A stretch of 61,124 bases of DNA from Promethearchaeota archaeon (GCA_048938385.1 JBHLMG010000014.1:1-61124), one strand, 5' to 3'; shown: positions 4,595 through 11,949, counted from the first letter of the stretch. Notes: generated by a model from the sequence alone, not told the origin. Numbers and translations are program-made.

Positions 4595-5779
4595 GTGACC
4601 AAAAATTCGGTGATGAACCTCGTGAAGATTCTCATGGTTGTTGAGGCACATGTCAAGGGCGCAGGAGGGGGTCCGATGTATTGGGCTCAACTCAGTGAGC
4701 ACCTGGTTCGTCGTGGACATCAAGTGCAGATCCTCAGTGGTTTTAAACCTGATTCCGAGTTTGTTTCACCGAATACCGTGGGCTTGATACCTATTCGGGG
4801 GGATCTGCGTAGCCGATCCGGATGGACCCTGCTGAGCCGTTATTGGTTTCGGAAACGGTTTGTCCCTGTGGTTCGAACATTTGTTGAGCAATGGCAGCCG
4901 GATATCATTCACACGGTTCCCCCTATTGCTTCGGAAGCAGCCTTGCGAGCAGGAGTTGCCTTAGATATTCCAGTGGTGGCGTCAATTCTATCCCATGTAG
5001 AGGCACAATGGTCCCAGCTTGAACCTAACTGGTTGCGGGCTTACTTGTTCCGTCAACTGGAATTGCGTGCAATTCATCGCCCGTTTCGGCGTATCATCTG
5101 TTTGACGCGTCGGTCTCAGCAGGTATTACAGGCGGAGGGGATTCCTGAGGCGCGGATCGTGTATGTACCTCATGCAGTGGACACCGAGAAGTTCGGTTCA
5201 AAAGCTGTTGCGCGATTTCGCACTCAACTGGCATTGTCTGACGAAACTTTTGTGATTGGATATGCTGGTGTGCTATCGCGTGAGAAGGGAACCTTTCAGT
5301 TGTTTGAAGCGATGGCTCGTCTAGCCAATCTGCATAATCTTGCACTTTTAGTCGCAGGAGAACCTCTTCCAAGCCGTAGACGCCCACTAGCATTGAGAAA
5401 GGCTTTTCGCAATGTGTACTTTTTGGGACGGGTTGAACACGAAGATATGCCTGCGTTTATGGCTTCGTTAGATCTATTCATCATCCCGTCGTGGACGGAA
5501 ACCTTGCCCACCACTCTGCTCGAAGCCCTCGCTACAGGGGTTCCTGTCATGGCGTCAGCTGTGGGTGGAATCAAAGAGTTTCTGAAAAATCGCCTTGGGA
5601 TCATATTGCCTTCACTCAGGACCGAAGACATCGTCCAGGGATTAAATGCATGGATGCCTCGGCGTGAGGATTTGGAGGCGATGGGTCAGGCTGGTCAACG
5701 GTATGTACGGGAACATCATAACTGGAAGCGAACCAGCGAACTTACCGAAGGAGTCTATCAAGCATGTCTCAAGGGCTAG
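4595..5779 (+). CDS. Glycosyltransferase family 4
   Basis: GT-B fold; ETLPTTLLEALATGVPV. Confidence 0.9.
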   Translation: MTKNSVMNLVKILMVVEAHVKGAGGGPMYWAQLSEHLVRRGHQVQILSGFKPDSEFVSPNTVGLIPIRGDLRSRSGWTLLSRYWFRKRFVPVVRTFVEQWQPDIIHTVPPIASEAALRAGVALDIPVVASILSHVEAQWSQLEPNWLRAYLFRQLELRAIHRPFRRIICLTRRSQQVLQAEGIPEARIVYVPHAVDTEKFGSKAVARFRTQLALSDETFVIGYAGVLSREKGTFQLFEAMARLANLHNLALLVAGEPLPSRRRPLALRKAFRNVYFLGRVEHEDMPAFMASLDLFIIPSWTETLPTTLLEALATGVPVMASAVGGIKEFLKNRLGIILPSLRTEDIVQGLNAWMPRREDLEAMGQAGQRYVREHHNWKRTSELTEGVYQACLKG

Positions 5780-7425
5780 AAACTGGGAGTTCCCCTGGAA
5801 AGGGACCTAACATTGAAGCCAGGTTGACTCACAATATTGGAGCCGAAGTCATCACCGTTATCATTCAAATCGTGTTTGGGGTTGCTTCATCGATGTTGAT
5901 TGTCCGGGGTTTACCCCAAACGCCTGTATACGAGTTCTACATCTACATCCTAATTTTTGCCTGGGCAAATATCCTCGTTCCCGTGGGTATTGGTGGCATA
6001 GATGTGGCCCTGATGAAGCACATTCCCGAGGTAATGAGTAGCCAGTCCTCATCGCTGTACCGGGTTATCAGGTGGGCATGTGTAGCAAGTCTGGCAGCGA
6101 GCCTAGGAATTATTTTCTTGGTTAATTTACTCCTGGTGTGGCTACCACTAGGTTCCTTAGTCCCCGTGTATGTGGTGCCTTTCTTTCAACTCGCCTTAAT
6201 CACGGTGCCACTGGTAGCCGTGAGTATGATTTTACAGGGCGTGTTTCGGGGAATGCAAAAGATGCGCTTTTGCGCTGAAGCGATGGGAGTGTTCCACGGC
6301 ATCTTTGTCGCTGGACTCGTGTACTTGTTTTTCACAGGGACCATGAATATCCTCAGTGTCATTGTGATAAACCTTGTAGCCTCGACAGTGACCATCATTT
6401 TCGAAGTTGGTATCCTGGCGATGCTGTTACGGCAATACCGAAGAGAAGGCGTGATGGAAGGGGAGTCGGTATCTTCGCGGTTGATAACTGGAACGGCCTT
6501 ACAGGCGTTTGTTTTGACAATGCTTGGTGCTCTCTTTGTGAATAGCCCTTTGCTCATCGCTAACTTGTTTCGGACATCGGATGTGATTTTTGCAGGTTTG
6601 GGTCTAGCCTTGGGTGTATCGGTCTATCTTCACCAGGGGCAAGCTGCACCCTTCCGTGTGTTGATTCCTCGGGTGTCTGGTGATGTGAAAGCACAAGCTT
6701 GGGTGTCTTTGAAGCAATATACGCAACGAGCCTGGAAGCTGGGTCTGTTAGTTGCAGCCTTTGTAATGGTAACGATTGCCTTCTTTGCTAATCCTGTAAT
6801 GGTAGTGTTTTTTGCAGAAGCCGGAGTCGTGGCAGCACCCTTTCTTGTGTTGATGACTGGCAGCTTTCTGATTTATCCGCTAGCTACGATGTTAATGGAT
6901 ACTCTCATAGGGTTAGGAAAAATCCGCTCAGTTTTGGTAACCTATGCCGTGTGGAATGTAGTTAACATAGCGGCGCTTTGGCTGCTTTGCCCTCTAGCCG
7001 GAGAATTGGTCGCCGCGCTGATTTGGTTGGTGGGACTTCCCTTCCTTTCCTTCCTCATTGTGGTATTTAGGCAGCGTATCGCTATTCGAATGACGGTTCC
7101 GTTTCTCTCGCGCATCATTGGAGTACTACTCGGAATTAGTTTGGTGTCTTGTGTGGTTGTATGGGTAGGGGGCATGTTGATGGCGTTTTTGAGTCTTAGC
7201 GGGAGTGTGGCGTGGTTCTTCCAGATCGTGCTTCTGTTGGTATTATTACCGATTTCTGCTCTCTACTTTTGGAGCCTTATTAGGATCAGAGTACTAGATG
7301 CGATTGATGTGAATGCGTTAGTCCAAATCGTGGGTGTCCTTGATCCGATATCGCGTCCCATTGTTTGGTTCATTAAACGACTGAGCCGCATAACTGATCG
7401 GGAGCGAGTTAATTCAGCGGGATAG
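5764..7425 (+). CDS. Oligosaccharide flippase / polysaccharide biosynthesis membrane protein
   Basis: About 14 hydrophobic segments, Wzx/MOP-like, located between two GT4 genes. Confidence 0.75.
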   Translation: MSQGLETGSSPGKGPNIEARLTHNIGAEVITVIIQIVFGVASSMLIVRGLPQTPVYEFYIYILIFAWANILVPVGIGGIDVALMKHIPEVMSSQSSSLYRVIRWACVASLAASLGIIFLVNLLLVWLPLGSLVPVYVVPFFQLALITVPLVAVSMILQGVFRGMQKMRFCAEAMGVFHGIFVAGLVYLFFTGTMNILSVIVINLVASTVTIIFEVGILAMLLRQYRREGVMEGESVSSRLITGTALQAFVLTMLGALFVNSPLLIANLFRTSDVIFAGLGLALGVSVYLHQGQAAPFRVLIPRVSGDVKAQAWVSLKQYTQRAWKLGLLVAAFVMVTIAFFANPVMVVFFAEAGVVAAPFLVLMTGSFLIYPLATMLMDTLIGLGKIRSVLVTYAVWNVVNIAALWLLCPLAGELVAALIWLVGLPFLSFLIVVFRQRIAIRMTVPFLSRIIGVLLGISLVSCVVVWVGGMLMAFLSLSGSVAWFFQIVLLLVLLPISALYFWSLIRIRVLDAIDVNALVQIVGVLDPISRPIVWFIKRLSRITDRERVNSAG

Positions 7426-8586
7426 TAATGCGTAGTAGAGGGCTTCGAGCTTTTTGGTGATTGGTTCTCGAGTGAAATGCTTTCGGACCCGCTCTCGTCC
7501 TGCTAGTCCAAGTTGATGGCGATAGAGAGGATTTTGCAGAAGCGAAATGATTGCTTGAGCCAATGGAATGGGATCGAAGGGCGGGACGAGCAGACCCGTT
7601 TCTCGATCATTTACTACATACGGAATTCCACCAACTTGAGTTGCAACGACGGGTTTGCCCTGAGCCATGGCTTCTAAGAGAACGATACCAAAGGCTTCAG
7701 ACCGAGACCGGGATGGCAAAACAAAGAGATCGCAGGCAGAATAGGCGTCTCGCAGGCGTCGCTGGGAAAGCACTCCGAGAAACTGGACCGCCTGGGAAAG
7801 CCCATGCTGTGTAACCGTGGATTGTAACTCCGATTGTAGAGGACCCCCACCTACAATGAGAAGTTGAGCTGTGGGTATTTTCACAAGAACTCGACGAAAA
7901 GCCCGAAGAAGCACCCGAAGCCCTTTATAGGCAACTAAGCGCCCAACGAACAACAGTAAAGGCGTTTCAGCGGTGAAGCCAAAACTTTCCTTTGCGTGAA
8001 CAGAATCTAAGGGTGAAGCCAGAAAGTAGGGATTGACAGGTGGTGGAATTACAGAGGTTTTGCCTCGGTACCGTTGTAGGAAGGATGAACTTTCGAGGTA
8101 AATTGGAGAGGTCACAATAAGGCGTCTAGCGATGTTGGCAGCAATATGGCGAGAAATCCAATAGACCTGACTGAGCCATCGATGGAAGAACCGAGTTTTT
8201 GTGGCAATGTCACTGGGGAGTGCATCAGCGTGGTAGGTAATGACTAAAGGAAGCCCCGTCAGTCGACTGGAAAAGGCGGTGAAATCCACAGTCATTGGGG
8301 AGTTAATGTGGGCATGAAGAAGATCGCATCGATCCCGGATGAGTGCGGGGATTAATCCCGGTATGAAAGGATAGCTGAACGGACGACTAATCGCATGGAA
8401 GCGATGAATGTGAATGCCATCCCATAGTTCATACCAAGGCAGCCCGGGTAGATGTGCAGTATACACTTTCACATAGTGACCAGCATCAACCAGGCCTTTG
8501 GCGAGATTATAAGCGTATGTTTCGATTCCCCCTACGACCGGATGAAAGTCGTGAACGACCTGTGTGATACGGAGGGAATGCTCCAT
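7414..8586 (-). CDS. Glycosyltransferase family 4
   Basis: FHPVVGGIE N-terminus, FVGRL..YKG, EAFGIVLLEAMA. Confidence 0.92.
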   Translation of the reverse strand: MEHSLRITQVVHDFHPVVGGIETYAYNLAKGLVDAGHYVKVYTAHLPGLPWYELWDGIHIHRFHAISRPFSYPFIPGLIPALIRDRCDLLHAHINSPMTVDFTAFSSRLTGLPLVITYHADALPSDIATKTRFFHRWLSQVYWISRHIAANIARRLIVTSPIYLESSSFLQRYRGKTSVIPPPVNPYFLASPLDSVHAKESFGFTAETPLLLFVGRLVAYKGLRVLLRAFRRVLVKIPTAQLLIVGGGPLQSELQSTVTQHGLSQAVQFLGVLSQRRLRDAYSACDLFVLPSRSRSEAFGIVLLEAMAQGKPVVATQVGGIPYVVNDRETGLLVPPFDPIPLAQAIISLLQNPLYRHQLGLAGRERVRKHFTREPITKKLEALYYALLSR

Positions 8587-8593
8587 AAGGGTT

Positions 8594-9094
8594 TCACCCC
8601 GTTACATTCATGGGTAAATGCACCCAGAGCCCGTTGCCTCGTTGATTGCGAACCCACACTATTGCATCTGTAGCGGGATCGTATCGCCATAATTCAAAGG
8701 TGAGTCGGAAATTATTACCCACTTGGGTCATGTTCAGTTCAATGGGAATGACCCATCGGCTACCATGGCTTAGAATTCGCTGGTGTTCTAATAAGATGGG
8801 GGCTGAAGAAGGCGTTGACGCGGTTGCCATGGTAGTCGCATTCGCTAGCTTTGTGCGGACATAGTAGTACTGTGCGACTCCCATGTAATTGTAGATGTCC
8901 ACATTCACCGTGACATTACTGTATTGGGTGACATTGGTAGGGTACGGACCGGCTTGCATGTTTTCATTGAGTAGTGCAATTGTAGAAGTGTATTCCACAG
9001 GAGGAAGGAACCATACGGAAACCAGGAGGGTTCCTGTGGTGAAAACGATGGCGAACATGAGTATGGTCAGAACGGTCTGGGTATGCCTTCTCAT
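8594..9094 (-). CDS. DUF1616-like membrane-anchored extracellular protein
   Basis: One N-terminal TM; YPTNV...NYMG...RLTFELW...WVHL; several N-x-S/T sequons. Confidence 0.65.
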   Translation of the reverse strand: MRRHTQTVLTILMFAIVFTTGTLLVSVWFLPPVEYTSTIALLNENMQAGPYPTNVTQYSNVTVNVDIYNYMGVAQYYYVRTKLANATTMATASTPSSAPILLEHQRILSHGSRWVIPIELNMTQVGNNFRLTFELWRYDPATDAIVWVRNQRGNGLWVHLPMNVTG

Positions 9095-9642
9095 GATGCC
9101 GCCTCCAGTTGCTTTTCGGGTAGTTGGATCCGCATTTGAAGGAATTCGCGTTTTTTCTGTTTCCGATACCGCTGCCAGCGAGTAATGGCAAAGTACAAGA
9201 TTACCACGACTATAACGATGAGGGCAATGGTAATAGTCAGTTGGATTTGAAGTTGCAAAGTCACCGAATAGGAGCGGGTTTGCGCTTCGTTGGTAACGGC
9301 TTCCGCATCTATTTGCACGCTATTGGCTAGCGTGATGGCTTGTCCGTAATTAGCGGCATCGTATTCGCGTCGAGCCTGATTGAGGATGCCGATAGCATCG
9401 TTGAGTGAACTGATGAGGTCACTAACAGGGGCACCAGTTGCATCCGCTGTTCTCACATGCATGTATGCTGTATTGATTGCATCCTGCGCGGCGTTAATCG
9501 CTTGCAGCGCTTCTGACTGTTGTAATGGAGCCCTTGAGGAGGGGGGCGAGCTGTAGGACCAACCAGGGTAAACCCCAAGAAGCCCTGTTGTACCAAGGAG
9601 AACGAACACTGCAATAATGAACTTCCAGCGGTGAGGTATCAT
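9091..9642 (-). CDS. Exported helical protein with C-terminal TM anchor
   Basis: Signal-like N-terminus, Ala-rich helices, TM followed by basic tail. Confidence 0.7.
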   Translation of the reverse strand: MIPHRWKFIIAVFVLLGTTGLLGVYPGWSYSSPPSSRAPLQQSEALQAINAAQDAINTAYMHVRTADATGAPVSDLISSLNDAIGILNQARREYDAANYGQAITLANSVQIDAEAVTNEAQTRSYSVTLQLQIQLTITIALIVIVVVILYFAITRWQRYRKQKKREFLQMRIQLPEKQLEAAS

Positions 9643-9715
9643 ATGTGCCCGAAGAATAGGGAATGCAAAGGTTAAAAGAATCTTTGCTTAAGAGTCGAAG
9701 AAGAGCGTTAACCCC

Positions 9716-10369
9716 ATGTTACTCCGAGAGAAGGATACCTATGTCCCTGAAACAGTTCGCGAACTCATCTTGGAAGCCCTGCACAGCCGACGCTTCTCAA
9801 CAGTGCAAGGTGTAGTGAATGCGTTGAAAACAGCGGGGGTCCCAGAAGAGACCACATTAAAAGTGATTCGTGATTTAGCTCGTGAAGGCAAGGTTCTCCT
9901 CAATCTACCAGGAGGGGCCAAAGAAGCAGTAATGACCCCGGTTTCAACTATAGGGGGCTACCTGCGGAGTACACTCGCGTGGGATCTCTGGTTAACCCTC
10001 CTTTTACTCAGCCTGGGACTTGCCACTACCCTAGGAATCCCGGTTGATCTGTATCCGCTCGTTATTTTTCGATGGATTTTTGGCGGGTTACTCCTGGTCT
10101 TCGTGCCTGGATTTGCCTTTATTCGCGCTTTATTTCCTTTTGAACGATACATCGATCAGTGGGAGCGAATCGCCCTTTCGTTGGGGCTGAGCATCGCCTT
10201 AGCGGTACTGGTAGCCTTTGGGTTAAACTTCACGCCTTGGGGAATCACTTTATTACCGACAGCGACGGTCCTCGCAGTCATTACCCTTGGCAGTATTTTT
10301 ATTGCCACATTTCGTCGCGCAAAAATCTTAATCGCACCACCAGAAGCCTCTGAAGCTTCAGACAGTTAA
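9716..10369 (+). CDS. DUF1616 membrane domain protein
   Basis: FVPGFAFIRALFP...ERIALSLGLSIA...LNFTPWGI. Confidence 0.8.
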   Translation: MLLREKDTYVPETVRELILEALHSRRFSTVQGVVNALKTAGVPEETTLKVIRDLAREGKVLLNLPGGAKEAVMTPVSTIGGYLRSTLAWDLWLTLLLLSLGLATTLGIPVDLYPLVIFRWIFGGLLLVFVPGFAFIRALFPFERYIDQWERIALSLGLSIALAVLVAFGLNFTPWGITLLPTATVLAVITLGSIFIATFRRAKILIAPPEASEASDS

Positions 10370-11416
10370 TGACTGGTAGCCTTTGAGCAAACAAGTCGGG
10401 GGAGTTTCGCCCTTTTTGACATGGCAGTCCGGGCATATGAGCGCTCCTTCCGGAATATGGGCACCTGCATCTAGGCGAGCGCGATCTCCTACGAGCACGA
10501 ACTTGTCTAGATGTAAATTTGCACCGATCATGGCGCCTTGTCCGATTATCGATGAATCGATGATGGCTCCTGCTGCAATACAGGCATCATCGAAAATCAC
10601 TGAATTGTGAATTCGTGCCATGGGTCCGATTTGGACACGATCTCCGATCGAAACGTCGGGTCCAATCACAGCTGAGGAAGCGATCTGTGTCTTAGCCCCA
10701 ACTCGTGGGGCATCACTGAAGACTACTTGGTGGGCTTTGATGAAAGCCGAGGGCGTGCCTGTATCAATCCAAAACCCGGTATGCTCCCATCCGTATACCT
10801 TTCCAGATTGACATAATGAAGGAAAGACTTCGCGTTCGATTGATACTTCTCGATTGGGAGGTATGTCATCTAGTACCTGTGATTCGAGCACATAACAGCC
10901 AGCGTTAATTAAATTGCTTGGAGCTAGGCCAGGATCCGGTTTTTCGATGAAGTCGAGGATCTGTCCGTCACTAGTGATGTCTACAACGCCAAACCGGCTT
11001 GGGTTATCAACATGATACAGCCCAATGGTGGCGGTAGCTTCGTGTTGGTTGTGAAATTGAATGAGGCGAGTGTAGTCAATGTCTGAGATGATATCGCCGT
11101 TGACAACCAGAAAGGCGGGTTCGCCTTGAAGCAGAGATTCTGCGTGTTTGATGGCTCCTGCCGTTCCAAGCGGTTGGGGTTCGATAGAATAGTGCAGGGT
11201 TTGCCCAGTGGCTGTTTTTTTACCTAGCAGTCCTTTCAGGCGGTCTCCACCATAACCTGTGGCGAGAATGACCTCGGTGATTCCACTTTTTCGTAATTGC
11301 GTGAGAAGATGCCCAATTAGAGTGGTGGTGGCAAGTGGAAGGAGCTGTTTGGGTCGGCTACAGGTAAGAGGGCGTAATCGGGTACCAAACCCTCCAGCCA
11401 GTATTAAGGCTTTCAT
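10358..11416 (-). CDS. NDP-sugar synthase (mannose-1-phosphate guanylyltransferase-like)
   Basis: LAGGFGTRLRPLT..PK, EPQPLGTAG, FIEKP, hexapeptide repeat tail. Confidence 0.9.
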   Translation of the reverse strand: MKALILAGGFGTRLRPLTCSRPKQLLPLATTTLIGHLLTQLRKSGITEVILATGYGGDRLKGLLGKKTATGQTLHYSIEPQPLGTAGAIKHAESLLQGEPAFLVVNGDIISDIDYTRLIQFHNQHEATATIGLYHVDNPSRFGVVDITSDGQILDFIEKPDPGLAPSNLINAGCYVLESQVLDDIPPNREVSIEREVFPSLCQSGKVYGWEHTGFWIDTGTPSAFIKAHQVVFSDAPRVGAKTQIASSAVIGPDVSIGDRVQIGPMARIHNSVIFDDACIAAGAIIDSSIIGQGAMIGANLHLDKFVLVGDRARLDAGAHIPEGALICPDCHVKKGETPPTCLLKGYQSLTV

Positions 11417-11604
11417 TCAGATATGAACCACCAAATCGTCAGTCTTCTGAGCCGTCTCGTCTAATGGTCTGATTAAAGAAGAGGCATAAGTATTTATTTG
11501 AATGTTAGTTTCTCTTCGTTGTCTGGTACTGCTTGTGGGTAAGACTTAAGAACAAGCCCATAGCAAGGCAGTCGCAGATTCCCTTTCTTGAGGGGTAACC
11601 CATT

Positions 11605-11949
11605 ATGGCTCGTGATAAAGTCTACGGTTTCCTAATTCTCCTCTTTGCGATTCTCATCTTACTCTACTATACCTATTGGGCTCTGATCTATCCGTTCATG
11701 TTCTTCGGCGTCTATCCATCGGGTGGAGTTTTCGACTATCCTTGGACACACCCATGGGTTCAAGGTTTGCCGTTTCTCCAATTCATTCCAGTCATCCGAG
11801 AGCCCTACTTCGCTGTTGCTATTCCAATGTGGTTGGCGATTGTACTAGTGCTCTTCATTGTGGCCTGGATTGGCTGGACAATGCTTACAACGCCACCTCC
11901 AATTCCGCTTGAAGAAATCGAGGAAGAAGAGGAAGCCAAAGAAGAGTAA
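11605..11949 (+). CDS. Two-TM membrane protein, DPM2/PIG-P-like
   Basis: DKVYGF...YYTYW..PF...YFAVAIP...WTMLTTPPP, resembling eukaryotic DPM2 and PIG-P by eye. Confidence 0.6.
   Translation: MARDKVYGFLILLFAILILLYYTYWALIYPFMFFGVYPSGGVFDYPWTHPWVQGLPFLQFIPVIREPYFAVAIPMWLAIVLVLFIVAWIGWTMLTTPPPIPLEEIEEEEEAKEE

Follow-up and report, generated by a model that had tools for sequence, protein, structure and literature searches.

DPM2 and PIG-P are small subunits of two enzymes of the ER that start the synthesis of Dol-P-Man and of GPI anchors, and the mechanism by which they act is poorly understood. DPM2 (PF07297), a protein of about 84 amino acids, is the regulatory subunit of the eukaryotic type-II Dol-P-Man synthase and also an accessory of the GPI-GlcNAc transferase; PIG-P, or Gpi19 (PF08510), is for its part an essential small subunit of this latter transferase.

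The yeast DPM2 homologue, Yil102c-A, binds both a Dpm1 that bears its own transmembrane (TM) segment and the GPI-GnT (PMC7728079). In the type-III Dol-P-Man synthase of P. furiosus (PfDPMS; 5MLZ), the helices TMH1 and TMH3 are similar to human DPM2, and the TM topology of the enzyme resembles that of the assembled DPM1/2/3 complex (PMC5526996). The mycobacterial GT2 enzyme PpgS (Rv3631) is paired with a small membrane protein, Rv3632 (PMC3485146). As to the origin of these subunits, a survey of 2008 did not find the GPI-GnT accessory proteins in archaea (PMC2446393), and in 2016 a proteoarchaeal origin was proposed for Dpm1, with the TM-less type as possibly ancestral (PMC4973528). Finally, the supplement of a 2025 Nature article, 'Dated gene duplications elucidate the evolutionary assembly of eukaryotes', gives 'Asgard' as the sister lineage of PF07297 and places at about 2.5 Ga the duplication from which DPM2 and PIGP arose (PMC12872463).

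The protein and its resemblance to DPM2 and PIG-P

The window—that is, the whole stretch of 61,124 nucleotides analyzed here, from a Hermod-type Asgard archaeon—contains on its plus strand an open reading frame of 114 codons starting with ATG, which we take for a real gene because it is conserved in more than 2,000 clusters. The initial annotation had described the product as a protein with two TM segments, a description borne out both by hydropathy, which placed those segments at residues 10–28 and 69–87, and by an AlphaFold2 (AF2) model from a 90-sequence alignment (mean pLDDT 86.7), which contained helices at residues 3–34 and 67–95 plus an acidic one at 102–113, the loop being less certain. 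By both methods the protein is accordingly a small two-TM hairpin, as DPM2 is. The gene comprises the following features:

11605..11949 (+): coding sequence, stop included, of a 114-aa DPM2/PIG-P-like two-TM protein (ORF list, Pfam)
11611..11706 (+): D-x3-G and TM helix 1 (residues 3–34, including YYTYW), the DPM2-like part (AF2, hydropathy, Pfam)
11707..11802 (+): variable, nearly uncharged loop (residues 35–66), predicted to lie outside (AF2, charge count)
11803..11889 (+): TM helix 2 (residues 67–95), with AVAIP at its start (AF2, hydropathy)
11866..11901 (+): W88-I-G-W-T-M-L-T-T-P-P-P99, at the predicted cytoplasmic end of TM helix 2, the most conserved element of the family (90-sequence alignment)
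11908..11946 (+): acidic C-terminal tail (residues 102–114), predicted to form a short helix (AF2, charge count)

The second helix was modeled with a pLDDT of 94–99, and the loop at residues 35–66 with one of 58–82 and with two short helices; this loop carries a net charge of −1 and is of very variable length among the relatives, that of the Hermod clade being longer than most. The tail belongs to a stretch with a net charge of −8, and acidic tails are found family-wide. Among the 90 aligned sequences G8, I89, and G90 are invariant, and D4, W88, T92, T96, P97, and P99 are each conserved in at least 90%. From the basic N-terminus, the near-uncharged loop, and the topology of the eukaryotic proteins, we infer that both ends of the protein would be cytoplasmic.

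All the motifs that the initial annotation had enumerated are present, namely D4-x3-G8 (loosely rendered there as 'D..G'), Y7GF, Y21YTYW25, W25A, P30F, A70VAIP74, and M93LTTPP98. With DPM2 the protein shares the two-TM hairpin, the D-x3-G and YYT-x-W in the first TM helix, and the AVAIP that starts the second; in contrast, the archaeal protein is 30 residues longer, has a loop of 32 residues, and possesses a WIGWT..TPPP motif and an acidic tail, both of which are absent from DPM2. The features in common with PIG-P are again the two-TM hairpin, the YGF near the N-terminus, the AVA-x-P, and, after the second TM helix, the M-x-x-T-x-P; whereas PIG-P has a longer C-terminal region, in whose place the archaeal protein has the short acidic tail.

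In the comparison with the Pfam DPM2 model the window protein scored 27.0 bits (E 5.7e-6), or 0.3 bits under the curated cut-off of 27.3, with the best stretch aligning residues 4–32 to profile positions 2–30; with the PIG-P model it obtained 19–23 bits (19.3 bits at E 1e-3, and 22.8 bits in a six-frame search), the cut-off of 39.3 not being reached. Among its relatives, the Asgard protein P0044 passes both thresholds with full-length alignments, at 39.8 versus 39.3 bits for PIG-P (positions 3–101 of 121) and 32.6 versus 27.3 bits for DPM2 (positions 2–71 of 75). P0007, from the Hermod clade and sharing 75% identity with the window protein, stands above the DPM2 cut-off with 27.6 bits, and another relative (P0250) attained 38.3 bits with PIG-P, for which the cut-off is 39.3. 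When the 90 relatives were scanned one by one and the matches counted at E ≤ 0.01, PIG-P was the commonest Pfam match, in 53 of them (best E 2.3e-10), and DPM2 was found in 43 (best E 3.9e-9); the PIG-P alignment spans the WIGWT..TPPP stretch after the second TM helix. The window protein is, in addition, 45–95% identical to Asgard members that carry PF07297 matches, and no NCBIfam model matches either this protein or the family. The likeness to DPM2 and to PIG-P put forward in the initial annotation thus goes beyond chance, in view of the E values of the window protein and of the consistent matches of its family, which include significant full-length ones.

We consider it very probable that the archaeal family is homologous to DPM2 and PIG-P. 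The window protein would then belong to the DPM2/PIG-P superfamily in an archaeal, pre-duplication form, a placement we take from the published PF07297 tree, where Asgard are sister to DPM2 plus PIGP (PMC12872463) and which speaks for the original proposal of an archaeal representative of the DPM2/PIG-P ancestor. That kinship is not new, since the Asgard-sister position is already in print in the same source; furthermore, the public annotation already places PF07297 and PF08510 on most of the relatives, and one Bathyarchaeota cluster has been automatically named 'Dolichol phosphate-mannose biosynthesis regulatory protein family'.

The search for similar folds was uninformative because the hairpin is too small: Foldseek with the AF2 model and a family-profile search of the PDB sequences returned no DPM2 or PIG-P chain and nothing meaningful. 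The ESM Atlas neighbors, all of them archaeal relatives with scores below 0.9, serve as leads only.

Distribution of the family and context of its genes

A phmmer search retrieved 176 representatives at 50% identity, and the 90-member profile, 2,277 clusters at 90% identity, the homologues being found at 95–30% identity. Our whole-genome survey covered Asgard and Thermoproteota and located the family in 138 of the 151 sampled Asgard genomes (70 of the 72 of high quality), mostly as a single copy, and in 187 of the 201 sampled Thermoproteota genomes, in up to five copies. Named relatives come from Hermod-, Thor-, Prometh(Loki)-, Odin-, Baldr-, Jord-, Hel-, Atabey-, and Heimdall-type Asgard as well as from Bathyarchaeia and other Thermoproteota. 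The family is a core gene of the TACK and Asgard archaea; and it is not an Asgard specialty, because it is near-universal in the Thermoproteota too.

Two Thermoproteota genomes each contain a canonical member and, convergent with it, a second paralogue that has diverged much further (E about 1e-13) (L102, 8870-9136 (+) and 9599-9871 (−); L103, 11106-11384 (+) and 11728-12021 (−)), at 6–9 kb from a pair formed by a DPM1-like GT2 and WecB; moreover, one Bathyarchaeia genome (G151) has five family copies. These paralogues and the five-copy genome suggest that the archaeal hairpin was duplicated independently.

Members of the family (P0044, P0271, and P0308, among others) are often called 'transcriptional regulator' by NCBI and 'predicted DNA-binding transcriptional regulator' by JGI, which looks like a propagated mis-annotation, since no NCBIfam model matches and the sequences give no hint of DNA binding. 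In another instance, the public label and the genome-based grouping disagree: JAPDJY010000039.1 (L048), labeled 'Thermoproteota archaeon isolate S9B3_HD70', has its family match at C1:97856-98257, the same coordinates as in G076, which is a sample of the Asgard phylum.

The surroundings of the gene in the window are the following:

4595..10369 (no strand): context block found in the Hermod clade only (Pfam, NCBIfam, TM counts, tblastn)
4595-5779 (+): GT4 (Pfam/NCBIfam)
5764-7425 (+): MOP-flippase-like polytopic protein of 553 aa (weak SpoVB/MOP-flippase match, E 5.3e-8)
7414-8586 (−): GT4 (Pfam/NCBIfam)
8594-9094 (−), 9091-9642 (−), 9716-10369 (+): three DUF1616-like membrane proteins (Pfam)
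10358..11416 (−): sugar-1-phosphate nucleotidyltransferase plus left-handed beta-helix (Pfam, NCBIfam)
11417..11604 (no strand): divergent intergenic region of 188 bp between the gene and the NTP-transferase gene (coordinates)

The NDP-sugar synthase that the initial annotation had placed in divergent orientation is there, across the gap of 188 bp, as a gene for an NTP_transferase domain (183 bits with Pfam) plus Hexapep, whose best curated match is mannose-1-phosphate guanylyltransferase (NF052502; E 1.2e-85 and 287.5 bits over the full length, below the cut-off of 440). The two GT4 genes and the flippase mentioned alongside are likewise present, 3–7 kb upstream of the 114-aa gene, the match of the flippase being weak; both GT4 proteins lack TM helices and have generic enzymes of the EPS, BshA, or MshA type as their best matches.

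The block is tightly packed: the last 16 nt of the upstream GT4 gene, which is on the same strand, also belong to the flippase-like gene (5764-5779), as do the last 12 nt of the convergent GT4 gene (7414-7425). The DUF1616 profile is split over three genes on both strands, with its positions 16–120 in 9716-10369 (+), which also has a winged-helix-like N-terminal region, 187–235 weakly in 9091-9642 (−), and 150–289 in 8594-9094 (−), an arrangement that recurs in the Hermod-clade loci L004, L005, and L007.

To survey the synteny, ORFs were called and the neighbors clustered in 75 loci from different species. Glycosylation contexts recur elsewhere in other forms, but the GT4-flippase-GT4-DUF1616-NTP-transferase-gene-HypC block is conserved only within the Hermod clade, whose loci L004–L007 have its genes at 44–79% identity (tblastn). 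In the 75 loci no glycosyltransferase is a conserved immediate neighbor, and no GT4 is conserved across lineages. What does recur beside the gene are sugar-nucleotide genes, in three unrelated arrangements from three lineages. Hermod-clade genomes have the gene back to back with that for the ManC-like NTP-transferase, the two divergent genes being separated by 151–188 bp (151–159 bp in L004–L006). In 15 loci of Thor/Prometh type it is convergent with an archaeal GlmM (TIGR03990, 554.7 bits versus a cut-off of 439), this score ruling out a phosphomannomutase (PMM) at that place. In 29 loci of Bathyarchaeia, AhcY precedes the gene on its own strand at a distance of about 75 bp, and in 6 of these a 250-aa NTP-transferase then follows, also on the same strand, at 43–69 bp or overlapping. 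Since the Thor-type neighbor is GlmM, the synteny is not specific to GDP-mannose; the sugar-nucleotide neighbors are a mixture of the GDP-Man-like and the UDP-GlcNAc pathways, in which mannose is not singled out.

Adjacency to DPM1-like GT2 genes (E ≤ 1e-30) was evaluated in the 201 Thermoproteota genomes up to 6 kb on each side. A family member lies within 2.1 kb in 4 of the 59 GT2 loci, each with a different gene order: the GT2 followed by the gene at 48 bp on the same strand (G344); the gene followed by the GT2 at 149 bp on the same strand, with a GT4 alongside (G338); the two at 1.7 kb, their cluster also containing a GT4 and a Wzx-like flippase (G222); and the two at 2.0 kb, clustered with WecB as well as sugar epimerases (G210). 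The chance expectation within 2.1 kb was about 0.2 loci versus the 4 seen (Poisson P about 8e-5, an indicative value because the genomes are non-independent). The link between the gene and the GT2 is real, but it is found in a minority of the loci. In the Asgard genomes there was no such adjacency, the closest pairs being 8–10 kb apart.

Candidate partners in the host genome

The host assembly (2.48 Mb) is 89.8% complete, and its only match to the DPM2 and PIG-P models is the ORF at 11605-11949, which is therefore in single copy. Within that 89.8%-complete genome, the PIG-A-specific domain (PF08288) gave no match at E ≤ 0.01, the best score for PIG-C/GPI2 (PF06432) was 14.4 bits, which is noise, and DPM3 (PF08285) gave no match at E ≤ 0.1, the lack of a DPM3 being one further difference from the eukaryotic DPM2 system. 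Three PIG-L-family deacetylases are present, a family that our controls indicate to be common outside GPI synthesis. The framing of the protein around the GPI-GlcNAc transferase, with which the initial annotation had associated both eukaryotic subunits and a GT4 catalytic partner, does not find backing in this genome, where neither the PIG-A-specific domain nor PIG-C was detected.

Two GT2 genes were detected in the genome, both short and devoid of TM segments. The first (contig 18) encodes 229 aa, and its best solved relative is 5MLZ, the Dol-P-Man synthase of P. furiosus (E 1.4e-19); because the alignment is confined to the catalytic domain, the four C-terminal TM helices of 5MLZ are missing from it. 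Among curated families it is closest to PpgS, which leads within NCBIfam (E 1.1e-37, below the cut-off), to AglJ, and to dolichyl-phosphate hexose transferase. A TM-less DPM1 homologue is accordingly present in the same genome as the hairpin, as in the DPM2 system, and many Asgard families have orthologues of it that likewise lack TM segments (identity of 50% or more, open frames of 221–263 aa). Of a 'type-II-like' Dol-P-sugar synthase, the genome therefore has the catalytic half and no obvious membrane half.

These enzymes permit a comparison with the other systems described. The 229-aa GT2 corresponds to the catalytic domain of 5MLZ; in the host, however, the hairpin is encoded by a separate gene, and the family profile had no match to 5MLZ at E values up to 10. 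PpgS and Rv3632 likewise combine a TM-less polyprenyl-phosphate sugar synthase with a small integral membrane protein that has its own gene, although that pair is bacterial and the parallel is an analogy only. Yil102c-A, in an interaction established by experiment, is a DPM2-type hairpin that works with a synthase having a TM segment of its own, to be compared with the co-occurrence, and at times the adjacency, of the archaeal protein and GtrB-like two-TM GT2s.

The second GT2 (contig 37, L089 32-793 (+)) is TM-less, has 236 aa, and is AglJ- or Dol-P-hexose-transferase-like. It is convergent with an RmlA/AglF-like sugar-1-phosphate nucleotidyltransferase gene (L089 788-1498 (−)), with an overlap of 6 bp, and the two may constitute a Dol-P-glucose-type module.

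The DPM1-like GT2s of the Thermoproteota have mostly 290–335 aa and two C-terminal TM helices, yet they co-exist with the small protein. This co-occurrence led us to reject the notion that the small protein is found only where DPM1 lacks TM helices, and for the same reason the protein is not a mere replacement anchor. Certain DPM1/GtrB-like GT2s of Asgard (L091, L093, L094, and L095; family f4 and others), of 390–418 aa, have an extra N-terminal TM hairpin besides two C-terminal TM helices; these N-terminal hairpins have no similarity to the DPM2/PIG-P-like family. With the family HMM, the hairpins of Asgard GT2s bearing TM segments at the N- or the C-terminus obtained about 0 bits, so that they do not furnish a Rosetta-stone link.

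Proposed role and alternative explanations

On balance, we favor the reading in which the protein would be an accessory subunit, itself non-catalytic, of a lipid-directed glycosyltransferase facing the cytoplasm; a Dol-P-hexose synthase of the GT2 DPM1/AglJ class would be the likeliest such enzyme. Taken separately, the accessory role toward some glycosyltransferase seems probable, and the designation of a DPM1/AglJ-type GT2 as the partner is a tentative one. According to this proposal, the two TM helices would hold the protein in the cytoplasmic membrane with the short basic N-terminus, the WIGWT..TPPP element, and the acidic tail facing the cytoplasm, where it would serve an enzyme transferring sugar to a lipid of the membrane; in this genome the candidate partner is the 229-aa TM-less GT2. 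The small protein might hold or stabilize that GT2 at the membrane, or else present dolichol phosphate to it, like the eukaryotic DPM2, and the WIGWT..TPPP element together with the acidic tail would be the candidate docking element.

The accessory role is favored by four independent glycan-related contexts in different lineages, and Yil102c-A and the PpgS–Rv3632 pair are precedents for it. Against the favored reading stand the adjacency to a GT2 in only 4 of 59 loci, none of them Asgard; the two TM helices that most Thermoproteota GT2s have of their own; the mixed pathways of the sugar-nucleotide neighbors; the DPM2 score of the window protein, 0.3 bits under the cut-off; the AhcY neighbor in the 29 Bathyarchaeia loci, which has no glycosylation role; the absence of DPM3; and the absence of fusions, for no longer or fused form joining the family domain to any enzyme was found, a result that constitutes weak evidence.

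A bolder version, which we regard as somewhat doubtful, would hold that the split Dol-P-Man synthase—a soluble GT2 plus a separate DPM2-type hairpin—predates the eukaryotes, so that the TACK and Asgard protein would be the long-missing membrane subunit of the archaeal dolichol-phosphate sugar synthases, with the WIGWT..TPPP element and acidic tail as the docking site. The matter is relevant to the question of whether lipid-linked glycosylation in eukaryotes has a multi-subunit design older than the eukaryotes themselves, and an archaeal pre-duplication relative in nearly all the Asgard and Thermoproteota genomes would offer a simpler system for approaching the function of the hairpin. Because the homology is already contained in the Pfam-based annotation and in PMC12872463, the remaining value is functional: what is new here is that this genome also encodes a DPM1-like enzyme without TM segments, that the GT2 adjacency in Thermoproteota, though modest, has been quantified, and that the sugar-nucleotide neighbors are of mixed pathways, with the TM-less and the GtrB-like GT2 synthases offered as candidate partners.

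It seems unlikely to us that the protein is a true but diverged homologue with a housekeeping function in the membrane, such as the stabilization of membrane complexes in general, the role in glycosylation having arisen only in eukaryotes. Such a function would agree with the near-universal and mostly single-copy occurrence, with AhcY about 75 bp upstream as the dominant Bathyarchaeia context, with the location in Thor-type loci between Etf genes and GlmM, convergent and non-operonic, and with the circumstance that no function has been assigned to what the family conserves best, the WIGWT..TPPP motif with the acidic tail; but the glycan-related contexts, which include same-strand adjacency to a GT2 of the Dol-P-sugar-synthase type, argue for the accessory role instead, as does the fact that the glycosyltransferases with which the two eukaryotic descendants work are lipid-directed (PMC7728079).

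A PIG-P-like role, as the accessory subunit of a GT4 N-acetylglucosaminyltransferase acting on an inositol phospholipid or another membrane lipid in a minimal archaeal GPI-GnT-like enzyme, we judge decidedly improbable. PIG-P is indeed the most frequent Pfam match of the relatives, in an alignment that includes the post-TM2 motif; GT4 genes are nearby in the window and in two Thermoproteota clusters; the GlmM that adjoins the gene in Thor-type loci belongs to the UDP-GlcNAc pathway; and the genome has its three PIG-L-family deacetylases. This last observation loses weight, however, given how common that family is outside GPI synthesis, and the missing PF08288 and PIG-C/GPI2 in the 89.8%-complete genome, the TM-less window GT4s with their generic EPS, BshA- or MshA-type matches, and the lack of a GT4 neighbor conserved across lineages all point away from such an enzyme.

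Finally, a chance or compositional resemblance—a mere hydrophobic two-TM protein, possibly holin-like, that matches the profiles of short TM proteins—is very improbable, for although Phage_holin_3_6 (PF07332) is matched by 48 of the 90 relatives (best E 2.4e-6), the window protein falls slightly under the DPM2 cut-off, and no solved structure backs the link with DPM2 and PIG-P, the window protein has no match to the holin model and no relative reaches its cut-off (at most 27.0 versus 28.4 bits), whereas those of DPM2 and PIG-P are passed full-length, the common motifs stand at equivalent positions, the independent published tree groups Asgard with DPM2 plus PIGP (PMC12872463), and the family HMM, in a negative control with the TM hairpins from eight GT2 enzymes, scored these at about 0 bits, so that the family signal is not one of generic hydrophobicity.
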